From contig OY969561.1 of assembly GCA_963701085.1 (NCBI GenBank), forward strand, positions 448,001-512,000: 64,000 bases of DNA, given 5' to 3'. The position numbers were made by a program, and so were the translations under genes. The stretch comes from an uncultured bacterium. Lineage in GTDB: Bacteria; Babelota; Babeliae; Babelales; Vermiphilaceae. Positions 9,572-46,084 of this stretch are shown here, piece by piece; positions within the stretch are counted from its first letter, which is position 1, and the number at the start of each line of letters is the position of its first letter. Under the pieces are notes generated by a model, which searched no databases, was not told the DNA's origin, and saw only the letters and a program-made list of their open reading frames with translations.

Positions 9572-10618
9572 TTAAGAAATGGTGCAATCAAACAAACGCC
9601 GCACAACATCGTTCTCTTCTTCTCTTTCATTTTCGATTTCTTTGCCAGACCTCGCGCCATAGTTCTCCAACAACAGGACAACTTTATCATATTCAGGATC
9701 TTCTTGCGCTTTATCTAACATTTTATCCAGCAACCTAATGGGTATTATGTTACCGCAATCATCAGTATAACTACCCAACTCATAATTAAGATTATAATGA
9801 TTAGGATTATCCAACAATGCTTCTAACGCTTTAATACTTTTTTTAACACATGCTCGCTCTAAAAGTTTTTCATTAAGTAAAATATTAGCATCATTAAAAT
9901 GAACAATTATTTCAGTAAAATTGGAATCATCATAAATAGCATCAATTAATACTTTCATACATTTTCCGTGATCACAATCAACTGCTATTTTAAGAGCTTT
10001 TTCTACATTTTTTCTATCCGTCTCTCTAGACTCACTCACTATATCGCTGCTTCCTACAAGACAAGCCATAAGCAGCTCTGTAGGCTTACATTGATCGTGA
10101 ACTGAATTTGTAATAGTATATGATTCCAACAATTGCCATAATTGTTCATCACCAGTATGGTCAGTAACACAACACATATCTAATACTTCATGTTGATCTT
10201 GAGAGCTATCAATAGAATAATAAAGATGATGACTTTTAGTGCAGGGCAAACTATTCTTTAAACAACCAAGAATAGTACTCTTCTTTAAAATATTTTCCAC
10301 TCCTGCATAATTCCCAACATAAGCAGCATTCAAAAGAATACGAATCATGCGTGAATGATCAACATGACAAAAATCATTGCTAAAAATATCCGGTGACTTT
10401 ATCGATCCTTTGATATACCAATTTCTGTTTGTTTTTTGAAAGTTATTTTTATTATCTGAATGTTTAAAAACTATGAACTGCGTTTCAGGTATTAATTCAG
10501 TAAAGTAACTAAACGTTACTCCTGATTTTAGAGACGGAAACCAATTCATACCAAAAGATTGCTGACTAAAGAATAAAATACTTACTACAATGCGTGCCGT
10601 TAAAAATGATATTTTCAT
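9572..10618 (-). CDS. Secreted F-box-like/ankyrin-like protein with C-terminal CaaX (CTIS)
   Basis: Signal peptide ending SFG-M; F-box-like FTELIPETQFIVF...TNRNW; degenerate ankyrin repeats (LLMACLVG, LKIAVDCD, LLENYGA); ends DCTIS-stop. Confidence 0.6.
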   Translation of the reverse strand: MKISFLTARIVVSILFFSQQSFGMNWFPSLKSGVTFSYFTELIPETQFIVFKHSDNKNNFQKTNRNWYIKGSIKSPDIFSNDFCHVDHSRMIRILLNAAYVGNYAGVENILKKSTILGCLKNSLPCTKSHHLYYSIDSSQDQHEVLDMCCVTDHTGDEQLWQLLESYTITNSVHDQCKPTELLMACLVGSSDIVSESRETDRKNVEKALKIAVDCDHGKCMKVLIDAIYDDSNFTEIIVHFNDANILLNEKLLERACVKKSIKALEALLDNPNHYNLNYELGSYTDDCGNIIPIRLLDKMLDKAQEDPEYDKVVLLLENYGARSGKEIENEREEENDVVRRLFDCTIS

Positions 10619-10798
10619 ATTATTCCATGTAATAATTATTGCAATGCACATTATGGCTTTTTATAATACCATTTTTCATAAATAATTCAATAAGACAAAT
10701 AAGCTCATTGTCTTTCATGAATACACTCAAAAAAATAGCACATAAAAACAGCGTGAAACAAGAAGATTTAGTTAACTGTCATGCAACAAGTCAAAAAG

Positions 10799-11974
10799 TT
10801 ATATTTTTAAACCAGCAGGCATTTTGACTGTTATTTCTAAAGCTTTAAAACCAAACAGTTCAATTTGGAGCTCTTTTTTTTCAATTTTTTTCAGAGCTGT
10901 CCAAGTAGCATTTACTGCAATCAGAACGCCATAACTCTCTGCATAAAGACAAGGAGACGATATTCCACAATGTGCTACTTCAAAATCTCTAAGCGCGCGT
11001 GATGTATCAGCGGATATTTCTTGAGCAAGTTTAAATTTTGTATATGCAGGATGCAGTTTTATATTTTCTGATTCAATAGTAGTACAAGCCGTTATTCCAT
11101 TAAGAATAGAAGATTCTATAGTAGCGTGTCCTTTGGCCGCATGGGTCATTTCATGATGCATCATATGTTTTATACAGTCCTGGCTTTGGTGAGCAAGACT
11201 TGGATTAAAACCAATAAAACAAGGTTTGTTTTTTTGATAGTCCCATAATTTTTGTGTTGGATTTTTATCAAGTTTATCCATAATGTCAAAATCTGTTAAT
11301 GATTTATCTACCAAGTTAACAATTGATTTGGGAGCCCTCAATTCAGCACTAGCTATTTCCCAATGTTTTTGATCAAGAAACCCAACATTAAAGGCTGTTG
11401 GATTACATTCATTTTCTTGTATTGCATCTGTTAATGCGTTTGCCAAATTTACTGGCAAATCAGGATTCCACGCTGTGGTATTCCATTGCTCCCTCAGTGT
11501 GGCAGTATCAAATTTATTTCTCGTTTCTAGCTCCAACATAAAGAGACGCCATAGTTTTGAATGAGGATCAATACCATACGCTTGTCGCAACTCATTTTGT
11601 GTATTAACTTCATGCGCAACAAGGAGTGCATTAATTTTATTAAATTGATCATGAATGTAGCATTTTGCTCTACCGATCGGTAAGGAACAAAGAATTTCGA
11701 CTATTTTATTGTGCAATAAATTTCTACTGCTTTGTTGTTGAAGATCGGCTGTTTTCAAAATTGCCAATCTTTCATAAATGGGCAACTTCTGTGCATCGCC
11801 ATTGAGAATGTCAATATTTAAAGATGGCATTAATTCATCATAAAATTGATCCAAATCGTTTAACATGGCGATGATTATATCATTTTTTGATTTTATACGT
11901 TTCATGCCAAACGCTAAAAACTGCCATGATAACAAAAATATAATACTTATACCAAGTACGGATTTATGCACCAA
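10799..11974 (-). CDS. Secreted HExxH zinc metallopeptidase-like protein
   Basis: Signal peptide ending AFG-M; HHEMTH and downstream EISAD. Paralog of 13488..14672. Confidence 0.6.
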   Translation of the reverse strand: MVHKSVLGISIIFLLSWQFLAFGMKRIKSKNDIIIAMLNDLDQFYDELMPSLNIDILNGDAQKLPIYERLAILKTADLQQQSSRNLLHNKIVEILCSLPIGRAKCYIHDQFNKINALLVAHEVNTQNELRQAYGIDPHSKLWRLFMLELETRNKFDTATLREQWNTTAWNPDLPVNLANALTDAIQENECNPTAFNVGFLDQKHWEIASAELRAPKSIVNLVDKSLTDFDIMDKLDKNPTQKLWDYQKNKPCFIGFNPSLAHQSQDCIKHMMHHEMTHAAKGHATIESSILNGITACTTIESENIKLHPAYTKFKLAQEISADTSRALRDFEVAHCGISSPCLYAESYGVLIAVNATWTALKKIEKKELQIELFGFKALEITVKMPAGLKI

Positions 11975-12090
11975 AATCCTAGCAAGTAATAGTTTGAACT
12001 GAAACTAACAAAAGATTTTTTTCATTACAAGTAATTTATTTTTGTTTTTTTTCAATTTTTTTAAGCACATCAATCATCAGCGTTTTACTA

Positions 12091-13194
12091 TCATTGCAAG
12101 TTACAGGCCTCTGTGGATACTGAAAATGGGTGGCTGAAATCATTATAATCTTCATCTTCATCATACCCCATCTCTTGCAAAGTCTTACCACCAAGTTCTT
12201 TGTATAATGCAATATATTCTGCAATGTTAGGAATATCTGTTTGTTTGCATATTTCATCCAAAGTTGTTGTATTGATACCTCCATATGCACGACCCAAATG
12301 AACATTCTTCAAGCAACCATAAACGTTATTTTGTACCAATGCCTTAAATGCTTGTTTTTTTTGCTTCTTCATCGCCATAAATAATAATTCCAGATGAATC
12401 TCTTGATTAGGTTCTTTTTTATTTTTTAGAAACGATAATACTTTGATACAGTGTGGATTATCGTTGTACATTGCTATATAGAAACAATCAAGTATAAGCG
12501 CATATGTTGTACATAAACGATGCATTTCAACATTATCAACTTTTTCGCTCACAGAGTACTTTAATCGATCATTACTGTATTCAACTACCTTGCCATCAAC
12601 AACTACATCAAGCTCTTGTTTGACTTTATCACTATCACCGTCAAAACAGGCCATAAACAAAGGAAAAAAGACAACCCCATTTTTATGTGCATTCGATGCC
12701 AAATCCAACTCTTCAAATTTCTTAGGAGTTCCCTTTTTCCAATTATTGTTACCCAAATGCAATTTTTGAATAACAAACATATCACTAAGGCGAAAGCTCG
12801 TTTCTTCACTAATATCATAATCAAAATTACGTTGATTAGTACGATTAAGAATATTGCTCATCACCTCAATATTCTCATTCCATGCAGCATGCATCATAAC
12901 ATAAGACCAATCATCTTGACTTGGATGGAATGATTCATCATTGATAAGTTGATACATGTTAGGAGCTTGTTTGGTTCCAATTTTATGCCATGATTTACAA
13001 CTATTTTTTAATTGATTTTTTATAGATGGGCACGCAACAACAAAAATGTGGCGTCGAATATCTTCTGAGAACTTTTGTATATTAAACTGTTCTGTATTGT
13101 GAATCGTTAACATACTAAAAGATATAGTGTTACTCAGCAGTACGAGTGATAGAGCACTTATTTTTAACGCAAATGGTTGCATACACATTCCCAA
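12091..13194 (-). CDS. Secreted F-box-like/ankyrin-like protein with C-terminal CaaX (CNLQ)
   Basis: Leader ending SFS-M; F-box-like FSEDIRRHIF...LKNSCKSW; ankyrin-like PLFMACFDGD; ends ACNLQ-stop. Exact start uncertain. Confidence 0.65.
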   Translation of the reverse strand: MGMCMQPFALKISALSLVLLSNTISFSMLTIHNTEQFNIQKFSEDIRRHIFVVACPSIKNQLKNSCKSWHKIGTKQAPNMYQLINDESFHPSQDDWSYVMMHAAWNENIEVMSNILNRTNQRNFDYDISEETSFRLSDMFVIQKLHLGNNNWKKGTPKKFEELDLASNAHKNGVVFFPLFMACFDGDSDKVKQELDVVVDGKVVEYSNDRLKYSVSEKVDNVEMHRLCTTYALILDCFYIAMYNDNPHCIKVLSFLKNKKEPNQEIHLELLFMAMKKQKKQAFKALVQNNVYGCLKNVHLGRAYGGINTTTLDEICKQTDIPNIAEYIALYKELGGKTLQEMGYDEDEDYNDFSHPFSVSTEACNLQ

Positions 13195-13487: not shown

Positions 13488-14672
13488 TTATAACAACAAA
13501 AACGCTTTAGAATTTTGTTGTTCTCTTTTCTCAATCTCTGCAAGCAGTTCGAAATTAGTGTTAATCATACGTAAAGCGCCATAGCTATCGGGATAAAGAC
13601 TATCAACTCCCATTATACACTGAGCTGCTTTTATATCTTTTAAGGCAGGCAATACATCGGCAGCATTTTCATGCGTTTTTACATATTGTGCATAAGCCGG
13701 ATGTAACATTATCTGGTCAATAGTAACGTTCGGGTTATTCCTGATTATACTTCCTACAAGAGACTTTCTTTTCCCATCATCTCCCTCTACAGCATGCCTT
13801 ACTTCGTGCTTTACTGTCTGCAACAAATACGCATCATCTTTATCAGCAAGTATTGGGTGATAACTGAAGCGAGCTGGAGCATCTTTTTTATATCCAAACA
13901 CTGTTTTTGCTGGATTTTTTTTAGATTCTTCAAGACTTATCGATCTATCCACCGAAATACATAGTGATTGAGGAGCACAAAAAGTAGCATCAGCTACATT
14001 TAAATATTTATCCTGAAGAATTTTTACATCAAATGCCGTCGACTCTAGTCCATTTTCTTGCATCTCATCTCTTAACAACTGAGCAAATTTTATGGGCACA
14101 TGAGAACACCATGTTGTATCATTCCTTGGCTGGCGCATTGATTCCAGATCAAACGCAGCTTTATCGTTTATTTGCTTCTCTTGCATGTACCATTGGTTTG
14201 AATAAGGATCAATATTATAAGCTTGTAACAATTGATTTTGTGCATCAATTTTATCCTGACGAAGTTGTGCGCATATTTTGTTATGCTCAGCTTCAATCCA
14301 ACGCTTAGCTTCATCGCTTGTCATCATGTGATTTTTAAGAATTATTGATCTTTTTGCCTGTACTTCATCTATATTTTTTAGTTTTGGCTGAATAATTTTA
14401 TTAAATAGAGCAAATTTACTCAGTACCGGAAGCTGATCAACGGTAACGTTTGGTATTGTTACTTTGTTAAGCATTTCTGTTAAATTTAAGGATGGCATTG
14501 AATATGCGAATGCTTCATCCAAATATTTCTGAGTATAATTTATAGTAGGCCTTACGTTTCTACGTATACTGAATGCCTCAACAGCTTCTCTTGTACGCTT
14601 CATACCAAACAACACAGTATTACTGAACAATACAAGCGATATAACACTTATTTTTACAATTAATTGATACAT
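13488..14672 (-). CDS. Secreted HExxH zinc metallopeptidase-like protein
   Basis: Leader ending LFG-M; KHEVRH and ENAAD. Shares QAYxIDP, TAFxV and LYxxSYG with 10799..11974. ATG 14672 follows AAAGGAG. Confidence 0.6.
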   Translation of the reverse strand: MYQLIVKISVISLVLFSNTVLFGMKRTREAVEAFSIRRNVRPTINYTQKYLDEAFAYSMPSLNLTEMLNKVTIPNVTVDQLPVLSKFALFNKIIQPKLKNIDEVQAKRSIILKNHMMTSDEAKRWIEAEHNKICAQLRQDKIDAQNQLLQAYNIDPYSNQWYMQEKQINDKAAFDLESMRQPRNDTTWCSHVPIKFAQLLRDEMQENGLESTAFDVKILQDKYLNVADATFCAPQSLCISVDRSISLEESKKNPAKTVFGYKKDAPARFSYHPILADKDDAYLLQTVKHEVRHAVEGDDGKRKSLVGSIIRNNPNVTIDQIMLHPAYAQYVKTHENAADVLPALKDIKAAQCIMGVDSLYPDSYGALRMINTNFELLAEIEKREQQNSKAFLLL

Positions 14673-14692
14673 AACATCTCCTTTGTAGTTAC

Positions 14693-16261
14693 TCAAGTCC
14701 TTGAGAAGGATAGATTTGCAAAACGACGCACACGAATTTCTTCATCATCTGTCAATCTAATATCTCGCCGAGGGAGTTTCTTCAAAATATCTCCAATGGA
14801 ATCCATCTTATGTAATTCTTCAGTCGTCATTCCACCATTATCTCTATAAACTCTCATATTATCTTTATCAAAATTTTTATCTTTAATCATTCGATCTAAG
14901 TTGGTGCGGGTCTGAACCTCAGGCTCATGTTGATATTTCCACTTAAGCATATTGCATTTACAAGGATCTATTTGAGATATAAGCTCAAAAGCTTCTTTGT
15001 TATTTGCAGCCAAAGATAATAACTCATAAGAAAGAACAATTACTTCATCCTGAGCAATACCCCCTTGCTGTCGTAATAAATTCAACTTTAGCAATAAACA
15101 TTCAAGAGCATTATTTTTTTTATGGGGAGAACTTATAGAAGCCATAATAGATATACAAACATCTATATGCTCGGAAATAGACATACAAACATCTCTATGT
15201 TCGGAACTATTTTCCAACTCTTTTGATACATCTTCATCATCACCAAACAGCGTTGCATTCATGAGAGGGCTTTTAAAATTGTATATACTAAATTCAGGTA
15301 TAACTCTTAGTTTTAGTCGCATCTTGGGATTTGATTTTAATCGCTTCTGGAAAAATTCATTATGAGCACTATCAAATCTTCTGTTTCCAAGTTCTTCTAT
15401 TTCTTTTTCATTACCAATAAATTGCACATCAGGGTTTGCGTAAAAATATTTCTTATAAGGACTTACGATAAGAAGGTCAATTATTCTATCTTCCTCTATA
15501 AAAACAGGTGACATATCAACCACAATTACTGGTACATAGTGGGAGCGTAAAAAATTCAACACAAATTGTGGATCTTGATTTTTATAAAGAATTTCTAGAT
15601 TACGTCTACCAACTTCTTCAATAGTCATTCCACCATTCTTTTTATAAATTTTAATATTTTCTTGATCAAAAAAGAAATCTTCAGTCATATTATCTAAAAG
15701 AGTAAAGCTTCGACCCAGACCCATTTCCAACACAAGGTCATGAGTAGTAAAAGGATCTACTTGTGATACCAACTCAAAACTGTTTCTATCTTTAGTTGAC
15801 CTAAAATACATCTGATATGATAAGAATGATCGGATATTAGGCGGAACAGTCGAGAATTGTAATGATTGCTTTAGCCCTAACAATGACCGAGAAAGATCAT
15901 TATAATCCTTTTTTGCTATAGCAACCATAAGATTCTCAAATAGGGGTCGTTGCTCAGAATCGAGACCTTCTCTTACCTTTACACAACCAAACAGATCTCT
16001 AAGATATTCTTCATCACTATCTTTTAATGCTGATGACAATTTAGGAACTATTGTCATTTTTGATTTTAACTTTTTATCTTCTTCTACTAACTTTAACACT
16101 TCATCAACAGTCATGGGATAGATGGGTTCTTGCTTAACTGACGCCTGCAACTGCTTTTTATCTTCTTGATTTTTATAACGTACAATCATCCCAAAAGAAA
16201 TAGAGTTGCCAACCAACAACAGCATAACGCTTATTTTTAAAAGAGATCGATACATATTCAT
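14693..16261 (-). CDS. Secreted protein with degenerate ankyrin-like repeats
   Basis: Starts MNMYRSLLKISV like its paralog; PLMNATLFGD; the FEL..Q.DP...LD.M...NGGMT module occurs twice. Confidence 0.6.
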   Translation of the reverse strand: MNMYRSLLKISVMLLLVGNSISFGMIVRYKNQEDKKQLQASVKQEPIYPMTVDEVLKLVEEDKKLKSKMTIVPKLSSALKDSDEEYLRDLFGCVKVREGLDSEQRPLFENLMVAIAKKDYNDLSRSLLGLKQSLQFSTVPPNIRSFLSYQMYFRSTKDRNSFELVSQVDPFTTHDLVLEMGLGRSFTLLDNMTEDFFFDQENIKIYKKNGGMTIEEVGRRNLEILYKNQDPQFVLNFLRSHYVPVIVVDMSPVFIEEDRIIDLLIVSPYKKYFYANPDVQFIGNEKEIEELGNRRFDSAHNEFFQKRLKSNPKMRLKLRVIPEFSIYNFKSPLMNATLFGDDEDVSKELENSSEHRDVCMSISEHIDVCISIMASISSPHKKNNALECLLLKLNLLRQQGGIAQDEVIVLSYELLSLAANNKEAFELISQIDPCKCNMLKWKYQHEPEVQTRTNLDRMIKDKNFDKDNMRVYRDNGGMTTEELHKMDSIGDILKKLPRRDIRLTDDEEIRVRRFANLSFSRT

Positions 16262-16307
16262 AGACGCATCCCTATCAAAAGGAAAACAGTTATTTTTATA
16301 TTTTAGC

Positions 16308-17504
16308 TTAATCAACACCATACTCAGTCACCTCGACAGTATTAAGTTGTTGATTACGTTCCATTTCTCTTTGTCTTAGACCGTTATACACTAGTCTGTC
16401 GAAATAATCGCTCGCCATTCTTTCTTCAGGTGTCATCGAATATCTTCGGTTAGGCAAATGTTGAATAATATTACCAACATATTCCATTCTTTTTAATGTT
16501 TTAGCTGTACATCCACCATTATCTATGAAAGTCTGAATATTTTCTTCTCCAAAATATTTTTTATCTCTGATCATCAAATCTAAGGTGGTATATTGTTTAT
16601 GATCGTCAGGATTATAAACCTTAATCATGTTGGCATTATACGGATCTTTTCGAGCTATAAGCTTAAAAACTTTTTTATTATCAGCAGATGCACCTAAAAA
16701 CTTATAAGATAGACCTACTCTCGTCTCTTCGTCGGATTCACTATTTTCCCCAAAAAATTGCTTACCTCTTTGCTTTATTTTTGCCAAAAGCAATTCAAGG
16801 GCATTATTTTTTTTATTAGGATAATTTATAGAAGCCAAAACCGCATAATGCATATCAACCCCATAATCATCATTAAGATCAACGGGTTCTGCACCATTAG
16901 GATTACTTCTTCTGAGTTCTTTTTGTATATCTTCATCGTTTCCAAAAAGAGATGCCATCACAAGAGGAAAATTTCGATTTTCAGAGTAAGTTATCTTATA
17001 TACACTTGGATTTTTATTAATACAATTAATGCGTTTTTTCTTAAACGCTTTTCGAAATCTTTCTTCACCAATCTTACGAATTTTTTCATTAGAATTTGAG
17101 AAAAACGATTCACAATAAGGAAAGTAAAACGATTCAAGGTAAGGATTAATCTCAAAAAAATCCAGATTAATTTCTTTTTTCGAATCTGTATAAACATTGT
17201 CATGAACCAACATCACTGGCACATAATTATCTTTATCACTTAAAAACTTCTGCACAAATTCTGACTTATGACGATTCCTATAAAGCTTTTCTAGATTATA
17301 CTGACCTTGTTCTTCTAAAGACAAAGTCTTAACTTTCTCTTTTTCTTTTTCATATATAGGTTTTAAGCAAGATGAAATAGATGCTTGTATAGCTTTTTTA
17401 CTTTGTTCATCTTTATATCTTACAATCATCCCAAGGGAAACTGCATTACTTATCATTGCAAGCACTATAACGCTTATTTTTAAAAAAGATCGATACATAT
17501 TCAT
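16308..17504 (-). CDS. Secreted protein with degenerate ankyrin-like repeats, paralog of 14693..16261
   Basis: MNMYRSFLKISV...GMIVRYK, PLVMASLFGN, KKNNALE, TTLDLM...NGG. Confidence 0.6.
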   Translation of the reverse strand: MNMYRSFLKISVIVLAMISNAVSLGMIVRYKDEQSKKAIQASISSCLKPIYEKEKEKVKTLSLEEQGQYNLEKLYRNRHKSEFVQKFLSDKDNYVPVMLVHDNVYTDSKKEINLDFFEINPYLESFYFPYCESFFSNSNEKIRKIGEERFRKAFKKKRINCINKNPSVYKITYSENRNFPLVMASLFGNDEDIQKELRRSNPNGAEPVDLNDDYGVDMHYAVLASINYPNKKNNALELLLAKIKQRGKQFFGENSESDEETRVGLSYKFLGASADNKKVFKLIARKDPYNANMIKVYNPDDHKQYTTLDLMIRDKKYFGEENIQTFIDNGGCTAKTLKRMEYVGNIIQHLPNRRYSMTPEERMASDYFDRLVYNGLRQREMERNQQLNTVEVTEYGVD

Positions 17505-20936: not shown

Positions 20937-21656
20937 ATGATTTATGCACGTCTTTTCATCTGTACTATTTTAATGACAAGCTCATTAAATTCTATGGAGA
21001 TTGTTAAAAAACATACCCAACACAGTCAGAGTTTTAAAAGATATCTCCTTACTCAAAAGATATGTAAAAAGGAGAGCTTTCCTAAAGAAATTGGTTATTA
21101 CATAATACACTACTACTTAGCTCTCAAAAATAATCATTTATTAGGCTTATTAAAAAAGGAAGATCTTTTTATGGTCGCATGGGATAATGTTCATATCCCA
21201 ATCAACTACTATCACCTACTCACCTACATACAAATCGAGTTAATAAAAGAACTTCTTTCCTATCGACCACCTTGCGTACAATACTGCCATAAATGTGACA
21301 AATACAAATTAGACAAGCGAGATTATCGTCTCTGCGAAAAAGATTATTTTCTAGAATCAAAAAAAGATTACCAACTTTTTTTAACACTACCAATAGAACT
21401 AAGAAAATGCTTGGCACAAGCACCAAAATCATTGATAAGTTGGGCAATTGAACTACAAGAAGATCCTAGCTACAACTACAAAAACATCATCATTCCCAAA
21501 GCAATTAATGCTTTCCAAGTGATACAGGTAAAAAGTAAATCCACCGTAATCAAACACGATCTACTACAAAAACTCGGTGCACCTATCAAAGCACACTATC
21601 CTGGCTATACACCACGATTAATTGTTCCAGAAGAAAAGCAACTCTCACTGAAATAA
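20937..21656 (+). CDS. Secreted hypothetical protein, paralog 1 of 3
   Basis: MIYARLFICTILMTSSLNS-MEI leader; FPKEI; FLTLPIELRKCL; IVPEE. Confidence 0.75.
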   Translation: MIYARLFICTILMTSSLNSMEIVKKHTQHSQSFKRYLLTQKICKKESFPKEIGYYIIHYYLALKNNHLLGLLKKEDLFMVAWDNVHIPINYYHLLTYIQIELIKELLSYRPPCVQYCHKCDKYKLDKRDYRLCEKDYFLESKKDYQLFLTLPIELRKCLAQAPKSLISWAIELQEDPSYNYKNIIIPKAINAFQVIQVKSKSTVIKHDLLQKLGAPIKAHYPGYTPRLIVPEEKQLSLK

Positions 21657-21758: not shown

Positions 21759-22409
21759 ATGCTTTATGCACGTCTTTTCATCTGTACTATTTTTATTACC
21801 AGCTCATTAAGCTCTATGGAAATTATTAAAAACAACAAAAACAAAAAAGTTCATACGGAAAAAAACTGTTGGGGCAATGATATCGTAACACAATTAATTC
21901 TCACCCAAAGAGTATGCGACAAAAACAAACTTCCTCAAGAGATTATCACTCAAATACACGCATACAACTTATTACTAAAGCACAAACATTTCGAAAATAA
22001 TTTTACTTGCATAAATCAATGGAATGATTTTCTTATTCCAATAAAATATCACTATCTTCTATCACCACAACAAATAAATATCCTAGAGACTTTATTCAAA
22101 ACCAAACCTTGCATATTTGATAGCTGGGACGGGTACGGGGTATCAGGGTATATGTATTTTTTACCATCAAAAAAAGATTATAAAAAGTTTTTAACACTAC
22201 CAATAGAACTGAGAAAATGCTTAGTCAAATTACCACAATCAAAAATAAAAAATAAACTCACTGATCACTATATCAATACTAACAAAGCTATAGGTATTAT
22301 AACCTGGCGAACCAGAGGACTCTCTATGTATGCCACACAACAAAGCATCGAGCAAAAATTGATTGTTCCAGAAGACAAAGAGGATAAAATCTACCACAAA
22401 AGACTCTAA
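21759..22409 (+). CDS. Secreted hypothetical protein, paralog 2 of 3
   Basis: Same leader; LPQEII; FLTLPIELRKCL; IVPED. Confidence 0.75.
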   Translation: MLYARLFICTIFITSSLSSMEIIKNNKNKKVHTEKNCWGNDIVTQLILTQRVCDKNKLPQEIITQIHAYNLLLKHKHFENNFTCINQWNDFLIPIKYHYLLSPQQINILETLFKTKPCIFDSWDGYGVSGYMYFLPSKKDYKKFLTLPIELRKCLVKLPQSKIKNKLTDHYINTNKAIGIITWRTRGLSMYATQQSIEQKLIVPEDKEDKIYHKRL

Positions 22410-22511: not shown

Positions 22512-23150
22512 ATGTTTTATGTATTTCTTTTAATAAGCACTATTTTGATGACAAATTCATTAAACTCTATGGAAATTATTAAAAAGAATAAAGCTCAAAA
22601 AAAACATACCCTTGATGATTCAATCAATAAAGAATTACTTTTTGTTCACGCAATAACCAATAAAGAAGTTCTACCGAGTGAAATTACTAAAAAAATTATA
22701 TTACCTTACTGCGCAGCATTAAAAAATAAAGAATTTGAAAACAATTCTAACACATTCAAAGAAACTTGGTTTAAAAACAGCCTTATCACCCGCGATTATT
22801 ATTTTTTGACATCGCAACAAAAAGAATTAATGTACAAAATAATTACAACAAAATTTGAAGGCTTAACTCGAATAGAGTATTGTTTAGATTCCACCAAAGA
22901 ATACAAATTATTTTTAAAATTACCAATCGAGCTCAGGAAAAACTTAACATTAGTACCCAACAGTATAAAATTCCGCCAAATCTTACTACCAGGATCTTCT
23001 CTCTATATTAATCCAGACAAAACAATACAAGTCAGAACAACAGGCCAAAAAATCATGGTCATGGTCACCGTAAATCATCATTATTGTGATAACAGCATTC
23101 CAAAACCAATTATTCCTGAAGAAAACGAGAAAAAGAATCATAAAAAATAA
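22512..23150 (+). CDS. Secreted hypothetical protein, paralog 3 of 3
   Basis: Same leader; LPSEIT; FLKLPIELRKNL; IIPEE. Confidence 0.75.
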   Translation: MFYVFLLISTILMTNSLNSMEIIKKNKAQKKHTLDDSINKELLFVHAITNKEVLPSEITKKIILPYCAALKNKEFENNSNTFKETWFKNSLITRDYYFLTSQQKELMYKIITTKFEGLTRIEYCLDSTKEYKLFLKLPIELRKNLTLVPNSIKFRQILLPGSSLYINPDKTIQVRTTGQKIMVMVTVNHHYCDNSIPKPIIPEENEKKNHKK

Positions 23151-23219: not shown

Positions 23220-24851
23220 ATGGATATGAAACATATATCATTGCGAATAACAATCGTTGCTGCATGCTGCAGCATTGCACTCATGTCACAAACAGCACAA
23301 AGTATGGAAAATTTTTTCCATGAACACAAAAATATCGGAGAAATCGCGGGAGCATTTTCACCAACACTCGGGCGATTGATGAATGGTGAGCAACCGGCAA
23401 TAGCTAATAATCCTCACAAAAATGAAACCGCTTTCACGCGACACACCTATACCATAAGTGAAGGTGAAAAAGTCTATCGCAAAAACCGCTTACCAATCAT
23501 AAAAGCTGCCCTAGAAAAAATGCTTAATCGTTCAATAAATGAACATCAAATTCCAAAAATCGCTCTCATTTGCAGTGGCGGTGGATACCGTGCAATGTTC
23601 TGCACCACCGGATCATTATGCGGTGCGCAAGAAATAGGTCTTTTGGATGCAACCACCTATATAACAGCGTTATCTGGATCAACATGGGCGGTTGCACCAT
23701 GGATTTCCACCGGATTACCGCTCAGAAAATTTAAAGATTATCTCCAGGAGTGCGCTGCAAAACCATTCCGTGATCTTACACATGAAGAAAAAATGTTGAT
23801 AGCAAACGCAATCGCCGTAAAAAAAACATACAAGCAACCTCGTACATTGGTCGACCCTTATGGCGATCTTTTAGCAAACAGGTTACTTGCATACTTTGGC
23901 GACATGAAACAGATGATCTATTTATCAGACCAATCTCAATCAATTGAATCCGGCACGTATCCTTACCCCATTTATACCGCAATAGATGGTCGCGAAAGCA
24001 TAGCACATGGACAAACATGGTATGAATTCACTCCTCATACAATCGGCGAACGGACCAATAACATACACATACCAACATGGGCATATGGAAGAAAATTCAA
24101 AAAAGGTGAATCTACCAACCATGCTCCAGAAAAAAATCTGGGCTATATGATGGGCACCTGGGGCTCCGCTTTTGCTGCAAATATTGATGATATAATCGAG
24201 GAAATAGACAAAGACAAAGACCATGAAAATCTTCTTGAAAAACTTGCTCAACCAATAGATGGAAAAAGAATTCTGCCTTTTGAGGCAAAAGTATCTAATT
24301 ACATGTACAGAATGCACTACCTTTCAGATGCAAAACTATCATCAAAGAAACATCTGAAATTTGTTGATTCCGGTCTTGAAATTAACTTACCTTACCCTCC
24401 TGTCAGCAGCACATGTCCAGAACGCACCCCCGATATTCTCATTTTTTTGGATGCATCAGCAGGACACATAGGCGATGAATTAAAAAAAGTAGCTGAATAT
24501 GCAAAAAGCAAGAACATCCCATTTCCTTCTATTAATAACGAGCTTCTTGGCAAGCAAACAATAAGCATTTTTAAAGATGAAGACAATACAGCAACGCCGA
24601 TTGTTATTTATATGCCACGCATCAGTGATAAACAATTATGGGAGGCAAACAGATCAAAACCAGAATTTGCACACTACAACCTTTCAGGTTTTGACCTAGA
24701 TCATGAGACCAATAACGGCTACTGTAAAACACAAAACTTTCAATACAAGCCAGAACACTCTGAACTTGTGATGAACCAGACCGAATTCAATATGTGCATT
24801 AATAAAGATATCATTTTAAAGGAAATCAATTGGTGCATAGATAGGAAATAA
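23220..24851 (+). CDS. Secreted cPLA2/phospholipase B-type lysophospholipase
   Basis: SGGGYRAM oxyanion motif, ALSGSTW serine, YPYPIY, WYEFTP, GTWGSAFA, FVDSG aspartate. Confidence 0.88.
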   Translation: MDMKHISLRITIVAACCSIALMSQTAQSMENFFHEHKNIGEIAGAFSPTLGRLMNGEQPAIANNPHKNETAFTRHTYTISEGEKVYRKNRLPIIKAALEKMLNRSINEHQIPKIALICSGGGYRAMFCTTGSLCGAQEIGLLDATTYITALSGSTWAVAPWISTGLPLRKFKDYLQECAAKPFRDLTHEEKMLIANAIAVKKTYKQPRTLVDPYGDLLANRLLAYFGDMKQMIYLSDQSQSIESGTYPYPIYTAIDGRESIAHGQTWYEFTPHTIGERTNNIHIPTWAYGRKFKKGESTNHAPEKNLGYMMGTWGSAFAANIDDIIEEIDKDKDHENLLEKLAQPIDGKRILPFEAKVSNYMYRMHYLSDAKLSSKKHLKFVDSGLEINLPYPPVSSTCPERTPDILIFLDASAGHIGDELKKVAEYAKSKNIPFPSINNELLGKQTISIFKDEDNTATPIVIYMPRISDKQLWEANRSKPEFAHYNLSGFDLDHETNNGYCKTQNFQYKPEHSELVMNQTEFNMCINKDIILKEINWCIDRK

Positions 24852-25053
24852 TTTCCCAAATGAAATTATATAACAATAAAGTACAAAAACCGTAGACTTT
24901 CATTACAATTTTTATATAGCTTATTAAAAAAATATAAAAAAAAGGAGACTCAAAGACATAGACTAATAATCCATATCACAAAAATACCCATCTGAAGAAT
25001 GCGCCTAAAAAAAAGATAAAAAACAATACAACATATTGTACAAAGGAATTGTA

Positions 25054-27051
25054 ATGATAAACGGAACGTATCGTTCAGTACTTGTCAGCCTTATCGCCAT
25101 CGGCGGTTTGATTACTACGTCTCAAGTCGCGGCAAAAACAAAAATAAAAAAACATAATATTCAATTACAGCTTGCTGATTCCCTTGGATTTCCTATTGTA
25201 GGAAGTGAATTCTGGGTTACTCTTGAGGTCATCCGAGAGTCGCTCGAGGAGAATAAATCATTGGTAACATTACAACTACCTCTCATTAACTTTCAAACTC
25301 AAGCAGCACCTTCCCCCGATAATCCGATTGGCCCTGGATTAGTTCCTGGAGGATATCTTTACACCTCTGATGGTTTTTTATCAAGAAAAAATCGGCCGTT
25401 CGTTTTAGTTCCGCCTTCAATTGTAGCAGCATCTGATAATGGATTGTCTCCTGTGTTCTCATTCACGCAAGATCCAGAAACATTACCCAATCCTCCAGCT
25501 GGTTACATTGTACAAGTAACTAATGCCGGCGAATTGCAAGTACAAGCAGCGGGAACCTTTGGAAACGTAATTGCACCAGGACCACAAATTTTAATGCCTT
25601 GTTCTATCTCCTACTTATCAAAAGGTAGTACCAAAAAGCTCTCCAACAACACCAAAATCAGCACTGGTGCCACAAATATTACCCAATTTACCGGTAGAGC
25701 AGCGAATGATGGCATTAGAGATTCTCACGTCAACGATGCATTCAATGGCATTGTTGCATTCGACTGGACTGATAATTCTATGATTGCAGATCAATCCAAC
25801 AATACTGTGAATACAATGGTTGCCATTGGCACAGTGAAACATGGCAAACTCAACATTGGCACACCGGTACAACTGACTAATTTGCCTGCTGGAGTAATGG
25901 CATGGGATACTGCAGTTGCCATTAATAGAGCTAATCCAAATAATATTGTAGTTTCATGGGAGCAACTTGACCATACAGTGAGCCCAACCATCGGCCTCCC
26001 TTATCGTGCCGTTTCATTTGATGGCGGTAAAACATGGCCGGTAAATGGCCTAATGAATGTAGGGCCAACAGGAAATCCTAGTTCAGCTGGTGACTGCCTC
26101 GGAGTAGCATCGGATAAATTTGGTAATATCTGGTATTCTGCAACAAATCTTTTTGACAATGCAGGCAACTTAATCAACCAACCATACTTTGCAGTAAGTA
26201 CCGATGGTGGTGTTACCTTTACCCTTGCATATACAGTTCCAGCATTTGATTTTAATCTAGGAGTAACCGATTACCCACAGTATTGTTTTGGTGGTGATGG
26301 ATTTGGCAACTATGGCTTATGGTTCCAAACTACTATTTTCCTCAATGATGGCGATGCATATCCAAATGTTGGATTCATACAAATACCAGGCCCACTCAGT
26401 CCTTCCGATTTCCCATTAACCAGCAATTTCACCGATCTGTTTGGACTTAATAATAGCATCACTGAAGGGGATCTTGCAGCATCATCAGATGGACGAGTTT
26501 GGTTTGCCGGATATCCAAATGCATTTGGATCATCTACCTATATTCATCCACAATCAATTTCATTCAAATCACCTGGCGCAATCGATGAAAATTGGAGTGG
26601 CTCTTGGAATTACTTAATTGGCAATGATAGCAGCGATATATATGAGATTACTACTGCCATATCATATCCAGCAGTTGGCTTTTTTGCTAATACTACATTA
26701 AGCATTGTTTATGATGAACAACGGCAAGCTCTCTATGCCATTGCTGTTGAGCCAAACCCCGATTATTCTCAAAATTACGATATACCCCTTATTATCTCAC
26801 GTGATAATGGCATGACATGGTCTAATCCAATTAGAATCAATACAAGTCATTCTGGCAATCGCGGTTATTATTCAATGGCACTTGATACAGTTACTGGTGA
26901 TTTAGTATTTGGTTTTTATGATGGACGTAATGATTCAACATTCCAAACATTAGAATATTTTGGTGCCGTATTATCAGCCAAAAAATTGGATAAATTGGTA
27001 AATAAAATACCACTATCAAATCCAACCTTTGTGGTGCCTTCGGCAGCATAA
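25054..27051 (+). CDS. Secreted Asp-box (BNR) beta-propeller, sialidase-like protein, copy 1
   Basis: SFDGGKTW, STDGGVTF, SRDNGMTW; signal peptide; ATG follows AAAGGA. Confidence 0.8.
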   Translation: MINGTYRSVLVSLIAIGGLITTSQVAAKTKIKKHNIQLQLADSLGFPIVGSEFWVTLEVIRESLEENKSLVTLQLPLINFQTQAAPSPDNPIGPGLVPGGYLYTSDGFLSRKNRPFVLVPPSIVAASDNGLSPVFSFTQDPETLPNPPAGYIVQVTNAGELQVQAAGTFGNVIAPGPQILMPCSISYLSKGSTKKLSNNTKISTGATNITQFTGRAANDGIRDSHVNDAFNGIVAFDWTDNSMIADQSNNTVNTMVAIGTVKHGKLNIGTPVQLTNLPAGVMAWDTAVAINRANPNNIVVSWEQLDHTVSPTIGLPYRAVSFDGGKTWPVNGLMNVGPTGNPSSAGDCLGVASDKFGNIWYSATNLFDNAGNLINQPYFAVSTDGGVTFTLAYTVPAFDFNLGVTDYPQYCFGGDGFGNYGLWFQTTIFLNDGDAYPNVGFIQIPGPLSPSDFPLTSNFTDLFGLNNSITEGDLAASSDGRVWFAGYPNAFGSSTYIHPQSISFKSPGAIDENWSGSWNYLIGNDSSDIYEITTAISYPAVGFFANTTLSIVYDEQRQALYAIAVEPNPDYSQNYDIPLIISRDNGMTWSNPIRINTSHSGNRGYYSMALDTVTGDLVFGFYDGRNDSTFQTLEYFGAVLSAKKLDKLVNKIPLSNPTFVVPSAA

Positions 27052-27414: not shown

Positions 27415-29451
27415 ATGATAAACGGAACGTATCGTTCAGTACTTGTCAGCCTTATCGCCATCGGCGGTTTGATTACTACGTCTCAAGTCGCGGCAAAAAC
27501 AAAAATAAAAAAACATAATATTCAATTACAGCTTGCTGATTCCCTTGGATTTCCTATTGTAGGAAGTGAATTCTGGGTTACCCTTGAGGTCATCCGAGAG
27601 TCGCTCGAAGAGAATAAATCATTGGTAACATTACAACTGCCACTCATTAACTTTCAAACTCAAGCAGCACCTTCTCCCGATAATCCGATTGGCCCTGGAT
27701 TAGTTCCTGGAGGATATCTTTACACCTCTGATGGTTTTTTATCAAGAAAAAATCGACCGTTCGTTTTAGTTCCGCCTTCAATTGTAGCAGCATCTGATAA
27801 TGGATTGTCTCCTGTGTTCTCATTCACGCAAGATCCAGAAACATTACCCAATCCTCCAGCTGGTTACATTGTACAAGTAACTAATGCCGGCGAATTGCAA
27901 GTACAAGCAGCGGGAACCTTTGGAAACGTAATTGCACCAGGACCACAAATTTTAATGCCTTGTTCTATCTCCTACTTATCAAAAGGTAGTACCAAAAAGC
28001 TCTCCAACAACACCAAAATCAGCTCTGGTGTCACAAATATTACCCAATTTACTGGTGGAGCGGCGAATGATGGTATTAGAGACACACACGTCAATGATGC
28101 ATTTGATGGCGTTGTTGCATTCAGCTGGACTTCTAATTCTGGGAACGTAAATCTTAATAATGGAACTCTGAATACATTTGTCGCAATAGGAACAGTCAAA
28201 AACGGTGAACTGAAAATGCATTCGCAAATTAATTTAACCAACTATCCAGACAACGTGTTAACGCCTACCAATCTAGGTATTCAGGCATGGGATACTTCAG
28301 TTGCAATTAATAGAGCAAATCCAGATAATATTGTAGTCTCATGGGGCAAAATCGATCGATCAAATGAACCAAGCTTAACCGTCCTCCCTTATCGTGCCGT
28401 TTCATTTGATGGTGGTAAAACATGGCCTATAAACGGACTAATGGACGTACCACCAACAGGAAATCCTGCTCGATTTGGCGACTGTCTTGGAGTATCCTCA
28501 GATAAATTTGGTAATATCTGGTATTCTGCAACAAATAGATTTGATGGTTCAGGTAATCAGATCAACCAACCATATTTTGCCGTGAGCACTGATGGTGGGA
28601 TTACCTTTACCCTTGCATATACAGTTCCAGCATTTGATTTTAATCTAGGATTCACCGATTACCCACAATATTGTTTTGGTGGTGATGGATTTGGCAACTA
28701 TGGTTTATGGTTCCAAACTACTATTTACCTCAATGATGGCGATGCGTATCCAAACGTTGGGTTCATACAAATACCAGGCCCACTCACACCTTCCGATTTT
28801 CCATTAACCAGCAATTTCACCGATTTGTTCGGACTGAATAATAGCATCATCGAGGGAGATCTTGCAGCATCATCAGACGGACGAGTGTGGTTTCAAGGAT
28901 ATCCGAATGCATTTGGATCATTTAGCTACATTCAGCCACAATCAATTTCATTCAAATCACCTGGCGCCATCGATGAAAACTGGAGTGGCTCTTGGAATTA
29001 CTTAATTGGCAATGATCTAAGCGATACATACTTTGGATCGATCCCTACTCCAATTGCTATATCATATCCACTTGTTGGCTTTTTTACTAATACTACATTA
29101 GGCATTGTTTATGATGAACAACGGCAAGCTCTCTATGCCATTGCTGTTGAGCCAAACCCGGATTATTCTCAAAATTACGATATACCCCTTATTATCTCAC
29201 GTGATAATGGCATGACGTGGTCTAATCCAATTCGAGTCAATACGAGTCATTCCGGCAATCGTGGTTATCAGTCAATGGCACTTGATACAGTAACTGGTGA
29301 TTTAGTATTTGGTTTTTATGATGGGCGTAATGATCCGACACTTCAGACATTAGAATATTTTGGTGCCGTATTATCAGCCAAAAAATTGGATAAATTGGTA
29401 AATAAAATACCACTATCAAATCCAACCTTTGTGGTGCCTTCGGCAGCATAA
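27415..29451 (+). CDS. Secreted Asp-box (BNR) beta-propeller, sialidase-like protein, copy 2
   Basis: N-terminal ~200 aa match copy 1; same three Asp boxes; diverged middle. Confidence 0.8.
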   Translation: MINGTYRSVLVSLIAIGGLITTSQVAAKTKIKKHNIQLQLADSLGFPIVGSEFWVTLEVIRESLEENKSLVTLQLPLINFQTQAAPSPDNPIGPGLVPGGYLYTSDGFLSRKNRPFVLVPPSIVAASDNGLSPVFSFTQDPETLPNPPAGYIVQVTNAGELQVQAAGTFGNVIAPGPQILMPCSISYLSKGSTKKLSNNTKISSGVTNITQFTGGAANDGIRDTHVNDAFDGVVAFSWTSNSGNVNLNNGTLNTFVAIGTVKNGELKMHSQINLTNYPDNVLTPTNLGIQAWDTSVAINRANPDNIVVSWGKIDRSNEPSLTVLPYRAVSFDGGKTWPINGLMDVPPTGNPARFGDCLGVSSDKFGNIWYSATNRFDGSGNQINQPYFAVSTDGGITFTLAYTVPAFDFNLGFTDYPQYCFGGDGFGNYGLWFQTTIYLNDGDAYPNVGFIQIPGPLTPSDFPLTSNFTDLFGLNNSIIEGDLAASSDGRVWFQGYPNAFGSFSYIQPQSISFKSPGAIDENWSGSWNYLIGNDLSDTYFGSIPTPIAISYPLVGFFTNTTLGIVYDEQRQALYAIAVEPNPDYSQNYDIPLIISRDNGMTWSNPIRVNTSHSGNRGYQSMALDTVTGDLVFGFYDGRNDPTLQTLEYFGAVLSAKKLDKLVNKIPLSNPTFVVPSAA

Positions 29452-30428: not shown

Positions 30429-31184
30429 TTAAGACTTATATCCACTAACAATCATATATGGCAGATACAACTTTATAGATTTATCTTCTGCCACAGGATA
30501 TTTTTCAAGGTAATTGTTTATAACATCATTCATAAACTCTACCTGACGCTCCTGAGGGATGATTCCATTCAATTCTGATGAATATGATGCAATCCATGCC
30601 ATAAATTTTTCTTTTGTCTTAAAAATAAATGGTTTTTTGATAATTTCACACGCAATACGATCTCCAATCCCTGCTCCTTCAAACAATTTTTTCATTGCTC
30701 TACTGCCACAAAGTTTTACTTCCTTATCGTTATCATAAAACTCTTTCCATGTATCATTCATGAAAGTTTGATAATATATATTTATATAGGGAGATTTATC
30801 ATAAGGCAACACCGCACAAAATTGACCATGTCTTTTTAATAAACGAGCGCCATTATCGAATGATTCTTGAGGTTTCTTAACAACATCCCAACACGCAAAC
30901 GTTAACACCTTATCATAACCTACTGCAGGCTTCTCCATCATATTCAGTGTATGTGTATCAATACAATAAATCTGCGCATCATAGGCCTTTTGCTGAATTA
31001 TTTTTTCACAATGAACACCAATATGCAAAATTTTCTCTTTATCAGCAAACAATAATTTTGAGACTGCGCACGTGGTCACCTTACGCTCGATCATTGATAA
31101 CTGCTTCTCATTCTCCATTCCACGCATACCACAAAACGAGAAACCAAATACTATTATTAAAAACTGTACTTTGTACGCATTCAT
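30429..31184 (-). CDS. Secreted degenerate class I SAM methyltransferase-like protein
   Basis: EKILHIG, IYCID, YDKVLT, LLKRHGQF pattern; glycine-rich SAM motif eroded; leader ending G-ME. Confidence 0.55.
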   Translation of the reverse strand: MNAYKVQFLIIVFGFSFCGMRGMENEKQLSMIERKVTTCAVSKLLFADKEKILHIGVHCEKIIQQKAYDAQIYCIDTHTLNMMEKPAVGYDKVLTFACWDVVKKPQESFDNGARLLKRHGQFCAVLPYDKSPYINIYYQTFMNDTWKEFYDNDKEVKLCGSRAMKKLFEGAGIGDRIACEIIKKPFIFKTKEKFMAWIASYSSELNGIIPQERQVEFMNDVINNYLEKYPVAEDKSIKLYLPYMIVSGYKS

Positions 31185-37696: not shown

Positions 37697-37700
37697 ATTA

Positions 37701-44780: not shown

Positions 44781-44815
44781 TTGAATTTTTTTAATCTCAA
44801 GAGTACACTTAAAAC

Positions 44816-45280
44816 ATGAATTATCAATACTATACTAAGACCAAAAACATTTTTGTACCTCAAAATCAACAGATCGTCCTTGTTGGTGGCTGCTTTGATA
44901 TCATTCATTTTGGACACATACAATTTTTGGAAAAAGCAAAGCAAGCTGGTGATTATCTTGTTGTAGCACTTGAACCAGATGAGCGTATTATCAACCACAA
45001 ACACCGCACTCCAATTCATACACAAGCAGAACGTGCTCATAATCTATTAGCACTACGCCATGTTGATCACATAATTATGTTACCAATGTTATATGGATTT
45101 CAAGATTATCTTGATCTTGTACAAACAATCAAACCACACGTTATTGCAATAACCAATGATGATCCACAACTACCCAACAAACAAAAACAAGCTGACGCGG
45201 TTGGCGCACAACTTGTTACGGTAACTGATATGATTGGAAATTTTTCAAGCTCAGCGATATTTCAAGATTTAATGATTTAA
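44816..45280 (+). CDS. Cytidylyltransferase-family nucleotidyltransferase (RibL/TagD-like)
   Basis: GGCFDIIHFGHIQFLEKAK HxGH motif; LVVALEPD; SSS near the C-terminus. Confidence 0.88.
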   Translation: MNYQYYTKTKNIFVPQNQQIVLVGGCFDIIHFGHIQFLEKAKQAGDYLVVALEPDERIINHKHRTPIHTQAERAHNLLALRHVDHIIMLPMLYGFQDYLDLVQTIKPHVIAITNDDPQLPNKQKQADAVGAQLVTVTDMIGNFSSSAIFQDLMI

Positions 45281-45292
45281 AAATTAAAGCTA

Positions 45293-46084
45293 TTATTCTC
45301 TGCCATTTTTTATTTTATTGAAATCTTCACCACTCATAATTGTAAGTAATTTTCGACATATTTCTAATCCAGTAATATATTCTTGTTGTTGCCGTTGGGA
45401 CATGCGATCCGAATGCGATGCATATTCCTTCTCCAAATTATTCATTCTACTTTGCACACGCTCAATTGCACTTACTCCATAACAATTTTTATGATGTGGA
45501 TCAACATTTAATGAATGCAATAATTTCGCTCGGCGTAACACATGATTTCCTTCTAGATAAAAGTCAAAAGGTCTTCCCAGCAACTTATGCCAAAGATTCT
45601 CACCAGAATTATCTACTGCATATGGATTAACTTTTCTACGAATAGCGTACTTTATAAAGGAATCTTTTGTAACTTTCGTATTATTTGTACCTTCATCCCT
45701 AATTACGTTGTGCAAATAATTTCCACCGTGACCGTCATCTATTTTACGGATATTACAACCATGTTTTTCAAGAAGTCGTATCATATTAAGAGATTGAGCG
45801 TCCTCTATCAAAGAATCATCACCTTTAAGTATCTTATAATTTTTAAGTAACCAATCTGCCGTTTTAACATCATCTATTTCAATAGCATCCACAAGTAGAA
45901 ATCCTCGACGAAATTGCAAATCCTTTATCTTCTTTTGACCAGTCGTCTTATTAGCACAAGAATGTCGCTGCTGAAACATTTTTGGTGTCGATTGTTTTGA
46001 TGTTTTTACCAACATAGCAGTAGCATTGGGTACAACAGTAAAACTGATCACTGCCGACAACACTATACTCTTTTTCATACGCAT
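45293..46084 (-). CDS. Secreted ankyrin-repeat protein
   Basis: Leader ending ATA-M; LLEKHGCNI, GGNYLH, VNPYAVDNSGENLWH, GVSAIE. Confidence 0.7.
   Translation of the reverse strand: MRMKKSIVLSAVISFTVVPNATAMLVKTSKQSTPKMFQQRHSCANKTTGQKKIKDLQFRRGFLLVDAIEIDDVKTADWLLKNYKILKGDDSLIEDAQSLNMIRLLEKHGCNIRKIDDGHGGNYLHNVIRDEGTNNTKVTKDSFIKYAIRRKVNPYAVDNSGENLWHKLLGRPFDFYLEGNHVLRRAKLLHSLNVDPHHKNCYGVSAIERVQSRMNNLEKEYASHSDRMSQRQQQEYITGLEICRKLLTIMSGEDFNKIKNGRE

Follow-up and report, generated by a model that had tools for sequence, protein, structure and literature searches.

A class of exported proteins that have methionine (Met) as the first residue after the predicted signal peptide is encoded in large numbers by an uncultured bacterium of the family Vermiphilaceae. 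The window analysed is a stretch of 64,000 nucleotides (G000:C1:448001-512000) from contig OY969561.1. The genome, G000, is a single contig, C1, of 1,198,634 bp with 37% G + C. A first-pass annotation had described twelve proteins of the window in which a Sec-like leader ends in a small residue followed by Met, and five leader-bearing proteins without Met that serve as controls (ALA↓D, ACA↓A, INA↓E, THA↓Q and VAA↓K, where ↓ marks the predicted cut). Reading of the translations locates all twelve junctions (Table 1) and all five controls. The observation is confirmed and extends far beyond the window, to 175 of the 1132 proteins called from open reading frames (ORFs) of G000.

A class-specific Met-first rule at signal peptidase I sites very probably accounts for these data. 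By this rule, about 175 fast-evolving, mostly orphan or eukaryote-like proteins would bear a translated Sec signal peptide with a cleavage region of the form [L/I/T/A/V]-[F/H/Y/x]-[G/A/S], followed directly by Met and then usually by Glu or Asp. The single signal peptidase I of the genome, LepB, would cut before Met, and the exported protein would start with Met-Glu or Met-Asp. The bond before Met is the predicted point of cleavage, a placement read from sequence. Housekeeping envelope proteins are outside the rule.

Size of the Met-first class

Genes of G000 were called by taking the longest ORFs greedily. Of the 1132 genes, 626 encode an uncharged hydrophobic stretch close to the N-terminus, and in 509 of them it is the only membrane-like segment. 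Cleavage sites were assigned by a crude rule combined with reading by eye, in place of SignalP. The strict form of the rule, which defines the class of 175, calls for Met at an offset of 12-18, counted from where the hydrophobic core begins, with a small -1 residue and an uncharged run of 12 residues ahead of Met; a looser list of leader↓Met proteins has 233 entries. The strict set misses some true cases (several ankyrin genes and two of the twelve in the window) and holds a few false members, namely two prepilin-like proteins and one membrane protein.

Met is concentrated at one distance from the core. Among the 509 proteins, counts at offsets 14, 15 and 16 are 54, 68 and 45 (remaining offsets, 5-27), and a small residue followed by Met occurs in the expected zone in 193 proteins as against 15-20 in each of three displaced zones. 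When the rule is applied to another residue, Met scores 178 and Ala 93, though Ala is fourfold commoner. A guess of the cleavage site from positions -3 and -1 that is blind to Met places Met at +1 in 126 of 408 proteins (ME 64, MD 14), the next residue being Leu with 32; the background frequency of Met is 2.0%. The same script applied to 150 kb of Escherichia coli K-12 finds +1 Met in one of 37 proteins, and that one is a lipoprotein. The genome-wide tabulation of the +1 residue that the first-pass annotation had proposed, carried out here with the crude rule, thus puts Met far above chance. A further 141 or so proteins have a good leader and no Met, so that more than half of the exported proteins follow the rule.

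The leader and the junction

The Met-class leaders have a median length of 21 amino acids (interquartile range 19-23, n = 175), and 156 of 175 carry Lys or Arg within the first 10 residues, as expected of a charged n-region. The uncharged run before the site has a median of 17; the hydrophobic core and the small -1 residue are themselves part of the selection rule. Other leader types do not fit. A twin-arginine motif is found in none of the 175 leaders, which argues against Tat signals, and a lipobox-like pattern near the site in only two, which argues against lipoprotein signals cut by signal peptidase II. Type IV prepilin leaders are also a poor match, as the hydrophobic stretch precedes Met, the mean hydropathy of residues +2 to +21 is -0.63 and Glu is at +5 in 15 of 175. 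One gene for signal peptidase I is present (LepB, G000:C1:661033-662004, minus strand; TIGR02227 over cut-off).

The junction itself displays a motif on both sides of the predicted cut. The counts at -1 are G 59, A 59, S 35, C 14 and T 8, and those at -3 are L 45, I 33, T 23, A 23, V 17 and S 17 (158/175 together). At -1 the Met class has G/A/S at 34/34/20% whereas the non-Met class has Ala at 80%, although part of the contrast at -1 and -3 stems from the way the non-Met class was scored. Position -2 is F, H or Y in 43% of the Met class, whereas the commonest residues there in non-Met proteins are S, N and T. After the cut, Glu dominates position +2 (E 89, D 20, K 10), and no strong preference is seen from +3 onward. 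Acidic residues at +2 total 109/175 in the Met class vs 26/141 in the non-Met class. Starts of the type recognised by the N-terminal acetyltransferase NatB amount to 123/175 (ME 89, MD 20, MN 7, MQ 7), and the small +2 residues that permit methionine aminopeptidase are found in 15/175 against a background of 0.377.

The leader is real and translated. A Shine-Dalgarno-like 4-mer lies 5′ of the leader start in 111 of the 175 Met-class genes, a frequency that can be set beside 357/691 for other genes with ATG as the first start. The same 4-mer is found 5′ of the +1 Met codon in 0/175, compared with 459 of 5658 random inner Met codons (8%). Hexamers resembling a -10 box show no enrichment 5′ of the Met codon (25/175 vs 18/141 in the non-Met class). 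Public gene calls use the leader start in four of five genes looked up, among them the leader-bearing form for 16308 and a form starting at 23226 for 23220. For the 20937 gene both a long form and an inner-Met form are present among the public calls; the latter (20994-21653), found in one assembly, hides the leader.

Independent families and conservation of Met

The 175 mature parts fall into 118 components unlinked by BLAST at E<=1e-5. Recent duplication is therefore ruled out as the cause, since 118 unlinked families carry the rule. Components that mix Met and non-Met proteins number 4 of 225, and the non-Met members of two of these are mis-scored SP↓ME (signal peptide followed by Met-Glu). 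A mobile leader cassette shared between families is likewise rejected as a general cause, as leader likeness across families is 2.21/18, vs 2.27/18 for Met against non-Met leaders. There are two exceptions in leader likeness: an LKIS...SN..FGM group in the window, and four genes with a shared leader. The latter (351700, 827190, 910062 and 910742) have the near-identical leader MKKYNV[GS]LA[SG]LLLFFATGAAI[AG]↓M, alike in 15-17 of the last 18 residues pairwise, and mature parts that are unlinked at the same BLAST threshold.

Met at +1 is under selection. A genus-mate, G007, was sampled over 800 kb of its 1367 kb and gives 469 reciprocal best hits with G000. In the 59 Met-class ortholog pairs, +1 Met is identical in 46, and several of the 13 non-identical pairs represent one- or two-residue alignment shifts or gaps. 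Position +2 is identical in 34/59, and the other positions from -10 to +16 in 17-32/59. This conservation is found in proteins that otherwise diverge rapidly: orthologs in the G007 sample are present for 59/175 Met-class genes at a median identity of 44%, for 67/141 non-Met exported genes at 66%, and for 343/816 other genes at 77%. G007 itself has strict cases in 128 of 764 genes, with Glu at +2 in 73.

Individual families display the same pattern. For the cPLA2-like protein 23220, the best hit keeps leader↓Met in 9 of 11 genus genomes (ME, MD, ME, ME, MD, ME, MH, ME, ME) with flanks that are unalignable; the two exceptions, G008 and G009, have best hits of paralog-level identity with SA↓D and SA↓V, and one hit in another genus reads FA↓D. 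Genus homologs of 30429 read YG↓ME, NG↓ME, NG↓ME and NA↓ME, and two others read QS↓AE and RG↓IE. Across genera, 7 of 25 homologs in 100-kb samples show SP↓M, the matches being few and distant.

Content of the two exported classes

The first-pass annotation had regarded the Met class as eukaryote-like and distinct from envelope proteins, and genome-wide domain content bears out this division. Domain scans represent 150 of the 175 Met-class proteins (the three longest of 153 covered are omitted) and 120 of the 141 non-Met proteins. Ank_2 is found in 25/150 of the Met class vs 3/120 of the non-Met class (Fisher p 9e-5), and two of these three non-Met proteins are SP↓ME by eye. WD40-type propellers are present in about 11 of the 150 and do not appear in the 25 families listed for non-Met proteins. 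Counted over the genome, 9 of 13 WD40 genes are in the strict Met class and one more is by eye. There are 45 ankyrin units, of which 21 are strict and two loose Met-class members; further ankyrin genes at 131400, 740214, 790927 and 792048 read SP↓ME by eye, and the 13 units that lack a hydrophobic N-terminus belong for the most part to a single array of short ORFs at 513.5-520.8 kb. The Met class thus takes in nearly all leader-bearing ankyrin and WD40 proteins.

Beyond clear ankyrin and WD40 proteins, the Met class includes weak matches to both, a C2H2 zinc finger, an epimerase, dTMP kinase, short-chain dehydrogenases and a methyltransferase; NCBIfam adds macro-domain hydrolases (6), GDP-fucose synthase and, again, dTMP kinase. 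The non-Met class has BamA, TolB, Prc/CtpA, a penicillin-binding protein, the alkaline phosphatase PafA and collagen-like adhesins by NCBIfam, and Peptidase_S74 (7), collagen (3), glycosidases and others by Pfam; it also includes some false leaders, for example dehydrogenases with a hydrophobic Rossmann start. Met-class proteins have less Gly and more Lys, Cys and Glu, and their genes cluster (50 adjacent pairs vs a shuffle mean of 26.8 and maximum of 42). Such a make-up suggests proteins active in the cytosol of a eukaryote, which would be delivered to a host.

Two adjoining dTMP kinase genes at G000:C1:723590-725773 form an instructive contrast, one starting MPQLTK and the other displaying a leader and then MENHKQLNR. 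The first, 723590, is leaderless and starts MPQLTKGILIAIEG; its neighbour 725039 reads leader↓MENHKQLNRGILIAIEG. The leader-bearing member suggests an exported copy of a nucleotide enzyme. GDP-fucose synthase reads leader↓MQKDAKIYVAGHRG.

Distribution among relatives

As proposed in the first-pass annotation, the search was repeated in related genomes, with 100 kb taken from each of 12 genomes of one order. Strict cases were counted per protein with a single N-terminal hydrophobic segment. They amount to 16/46 (G006) and 12/43 (G009) in the same genus as G000; 11/40 (G019), 9/27 (G022), 7/43 (G023) and 9/36 (G012) in the same family; and 9/41 (G034), 13/47 (G039) and 8/32 (G063) in other families. 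Low counts are found in G050 (3/36) and G054 (3/50), of the same family, and in G064 (3/52), of another family. The rule is therefore present in several families of the order and missing from these three relatives, which makes it old and widespread and not universal.

Genes of the window

The Met-class genes and the controls of the window are listed in Table 1. Shine-Dalgarno-like motifs are not found 5′ of the inner Met codons of the window genes, unlike at several of the leader starts.

Table 1. Met-class genes and non-Met controls of the window (positions are numbered from the first nucleotide of the window; ↓, predicted cut).
Feature	Position	Strand	Leader start	+1 Met codon	Junction	Remarks
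Met class	9572..10651	-	likely ATG 10618 (MKISFL...)	10549	SFG↓MNWF	
Met class	10799..11974	-	TTG/GTG	11905	AFG↓MKRI	HExxH motif
Met class	12091..13194	-		13113	SFS↓MLTI	paralog of 9572
Met class	13488..14696	-	AAGGAG, then ATG 14672 (codon 9)	14603	LFG↓MKRT	HExxH motif
Met class	14693..16321	-	likely ATG 16261	16189	SFG↓MIVR	no Pfam family
Met class	16308..17504	-		17429	SLG↓MIVR	paralog of 14693
Met class	20937..21656	+		20994	LNS↓MEIV	tandem paralog 1/3
Met class	21759..22409	+		21816	LSS↓MEII	tandem paralog 2/3
Met class	22512..23150	+	AAGGA 6 nt 5′ of ATG	22569	LNS↓MEII	tandem paralog 3/3
Met class	23220..24851	+	AAGGAG, then ATG 23226	23304	AQS↓MENF	cPLA2/lysophospholipase-like
Met class	30429..31184	-	GAGGAG, then ATG	31118	MRG↓MENE	
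Met class	45293..46084	-		46015	ATA↓MLVK	no Pfam family
Control	25036-27051 and 27361-29451	+			VAA↓K	two tandem near-identical genes; BNR/Asp-box repeat (sialidase-like)
Control	52077-54098 and 54460-56283	+			ALA↓D and ACA↓A	two large leader-bearing proteins; family without Pfam match
Control	57342-59192	+	ATG 57411		INA↓E	
Control	59199-61034	+			THA↓Q	

The eukaryote-like domains that the first-pass annotation had ascribed to the Met class of the window are borne out in part. In a Pfam scan of ten of the twelve proteins (paralogs 21759 and 22512 left out), the sole firm domain call is PLA2_B in 23220 (E 3.8e-28), in agreement with the cPLA2 assignment. Ankyrin is below the cut-off, with Ank_2 at E 0.0075 in 9572 and E 0.0024 in 12091. 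The HExxH assignment stands by motif only, in 10799 and 13488, neither of which matches a Pfam family, and the F-box assignment fails, no F-box family matching at E<=0.01. The non-Met proteins of the window show BNR, two GH1, one GH3 and a methyltransferase.

The two HExxH genes (10799-11974 and 13488-14696) match only each other at E<=1e-8, with no match in 10 other genomes of the genus, and form a strain-specific Met-class family. A family of leader-bearing proteins of about 600-670 amino acids (52077-54098, 54460-56283, 59199-61034 and 63901 onward) shares an RSQG/RSQD motif close to where the mature protein begins. Neither of the two members scanned matches a Pfam family, and these may be outer-membrane proteins. 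Just beyond the end of the window, at G000:C1:513502-520810, is an array of about 10 short leaderless ankyrin ORFs (90-310 amino acids) on one strand, which resembles a large ankyrin gene, or a few such genes, broken up.

Secretion machinery

Among the secretion parts searched, G000 gives matches to two secretins and two T2SSE ATPases and none to a TolC-type OEP; prepilin-like proteins are also present. Frame changes break each of the secretin genes into a pair of ORFs (524+241 and 318+400 amino acids; G000:C1:993226-1000473), and this represents either assembly error or decay of the outer-membrane channel. Five relatives, with or without the rule, have two intact secretins each, of 760-981 amino acids, so that secretin number is uninformative as a correlate of the rule. 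LepB is present in two copies in some relatives. Two leader-bearing GNAT acetyltransferases in the genome were considered as a periplasmic acetylase and dropped because acetyl-CoA is not expected in the periplasm.

Purpose and origin of the rule

The descriptive part of the rule is firm, and statements on its purpose are conditional. A Met-acid start might give host-bound proteins a native-looking, protected N-terminus, a tentative reading that falls somewhat short of probable. Methionine aminopeptidase leaves Met in place before an acidic residue, and a Met-acid start is not a classical destabilising N-terminal residue and is of the type acetylated by host NatB; a protected, host-compatible N-terminus is plausible for these reasons. 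It is ranked first because of the content of the class, the avoidance of small residues at +2, the prevalence of NatB-type starts (123/175) and the precedent of the Bacteroidetes Q-rule, whose logic it matches in that a lineage there fixes the +1 residue to protect its exported proteins. Several points weigh against it. The classical N-end rule equally allows Ala, Ser, Thr, Gly and Val at +1, and stability alone is therefore not enough to account for the near-exclusive use of Met. Because NatB works on nascent chains, acetylation may never reach proteins that are delivered once made. With Glu and Asp excluded, position +2 shows no depletion of hydrophobic residues (18/66 vs a background of about 0.30), and the difference at -2 on the leader side is not predicted by a purpose served only after cleavage. 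The two classes rest on a crude rule, and the bond cleaved, delivery to the host and any reader of Met are all putative. Lastly, three relatives do without the rule: G050 and G054 have ordinary mixed +1 residues, and in G064, 22 distinct ankyrin N-termini have leader junctions such as A↓AQE, A↓FQE and S↓QQ, with Met in one. As these relatives export leader-bearing proteins, Met is no general requirement for export in the group.

Alternatively, the free Met-Glu/Asp N-terminus, or the whole precursor junction, might be a sorting mark that selects periplasmic proteins for passage across the outer membrane by type II-like machinery or vesicles, residents without the mark staying in the periplasm. 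This is the less likely of the two leading readings, which nothing computed separates; the host-compatible N-terminus is favoured. A sorting mark would account for the clean split of about 175 Met and 141 non-Met proteins with few mixed families, for the absence of Met from all named envelope residents, for leader-side differences at -2 and -3 that fit reading of the precursor, and for a patchy spread that matches gain and loss of a reading factor. As a linear address code, Met-Glu/Asp would let a type II-like or unknown outer-membrane route pick about 170 unrelated host-directed proteins from the periplasm, the reading factor being lost in lineages without the rule, a proposal that is likewise rather doubtful. 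The secretins and T2SSE ATPases of G000, with no OEP match among the parts searched, are compatible with such a route; against it, no linear N-terminal type II secretion signal is known, secretins are present in relatives both with and without the rule, and both secretin genes of G000 are frameshifted while the 175 genes are intact, though the interruptions may be assembly errors. A type II system is the sole one reported for Babela (PMC4378268). The nearest precedent, the Q-rule, is reported to have no part in sorting (PMC5837995). It is improbable that Met is the relic of an original cytoplasmic start, with the leader added upstream, or a second start that yields a cytoplasmic copy. The presence of cytoplasmic-type enzymes whose fold begins right after Met (GDP-fucose synthase, dTMP kinase) and the public call of the 20937 gene from its inner Met would fit. 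However, the upstream motifs lend no support to initiation at the inner Met, whether from a separate ribosome site or through a promoter for a leaderless transcript (0/175 and 25/175 vs 18/141, as above). Real starts also have a different second residue (after ATG as first start, K 213 and E 31 of all 821 such ORFs, vs E 89/175 after +1 Met), a relic would decay and yet Met is kept better than its neighbours except +2, and the Mets of the dTMP kinase pair lie at unequal distances from the fold. Equally hard to credit is that +1 Met and the special -3/-2/-1 pattern serve to set the rate or timing of release by signal peptidase, for example by holding the protein at the membrane until it is needed, with no later role for the N-terminus. 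The motif on both sides of the cut and the variation in LepB number, one in G000 and two in some relatives, are in its favour; on the other side, signal peptidase I is known to tolerate +1 residues other than Pro, the scoring of the non-Met class contributes to the -1/-3 contrast, and the acidic +2 is left unexplained. Least likely by far is an artefact in which the leaders are untranslated in-frame upstream sequence and the proteins start at Met. T-rich DNA upstream in an A + T-rich genome can read as a hydrophobic peptide, and an ORF caller picks the longest frame. This over-extension is close to refuted by the Shine-Dalgarno-like motifs, which occur before the leader and never before Met, by leaders that stay open and keep their form in orthologs of drifted sequence, and by independent public gene calls that include the leader; the leaders also have a charged start, a hydrophobic core and a small -1 residue.

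Significance

Most Met-class proteins have no recognisable domain, and a leader followed by Met and an acidic residue offers a one-line test for likely host-directed proteins of a large, almost uncultured parasite phylum. The choice of start codon is also affected, since the leader is lost from view when a gene finder picks the inner Met. If the bacterium reads the Met-acid start, the rule bears on how type II-like export picks its substrates, and an address code, if true, would be the first simple sequence signal for that outer-membrane step. If the Met-acid start matters in the host, it would represent a parasite shaping its mature N-termini to eukaryotic protein-end rules.

Comparison with known systems

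The Met-class leader resembles a classical Sec/signal peptidase I signal peptide in its charged start, hydrophobic core, small -1 and allowed -3 residues, length of about 21 amino acids and the presence of LepB. It differs in the residue after the cut, +1 Met being found in 126/408 proteins here vs 1/37 in the E. coli sample. A similarity of logic can be seen with the Bacteroidetes lipoprotein export signal and Plasmodium PEXEL, where a short, often acidic motif after leader cleavage decides onward export. The residues, enzymes and organisms are other ones, and no reader of Met-acid is known.

Small genomes with many leader-bearing proteins, ankyrin proteins among them, are a feature shared with the Dependentiae Babela and Chromulinavorax. 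In size (1.2 Mb), G + C content and the share of proteins with a hydrophobic N-terminus (about half), G000 agrees with what is published on Dependentiae (TM6). In Chromulinavorax destructans 44% of coding sequences are reported to have signal peptides (PMC6561590), and in Babela massiliensis 79 of 126 ankyrin proteins do (PMC4378268). The word methionine does not occur in either paper, and the residue after the leader is not discussed there. No published description of Met after the leader was found in the literature covered, which does not extend to the Babela and Chromulinavorax supplementary tables, where cleavage sites are possibly listed.

The closest parallel is the Bacteroidetes Q-rule, in which Gln is at +1 of signal peptidase I substrates and is cyclised to pyroglutamate (PMC5837995, PMC10653852). 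The Q-rule paper argues for protection from aminopeptidases and against a sorting role, and has no occurrence of methionine, TM6 or Dependentiae (PMC5837995). In both cases a lineage-specific rule fixes the first residue that signal peptidase I exposes on much of the exported set, and by analogy protection of the new N-terminus would be the likely meaning here as well. There are differences, however. The residue is Met and not Gln (Q 10/408, M 126/408), the next residue is also constrained to Glu or Asp, and the rule is patchily distributed among the relatives. For the Met rule no modifying enzyme is known, and no search for a cyclase or Met-modifying enzyme was made here. Only one exported class is covered, ankyrin and WD40 proteins having Met while BamA, TolB, Prc and the penicillin-binding protein are spared. 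The Met-first rule would be the second lineage-wide +1 rule after the Q-rule, and the first to separate two exported classes in one cell.

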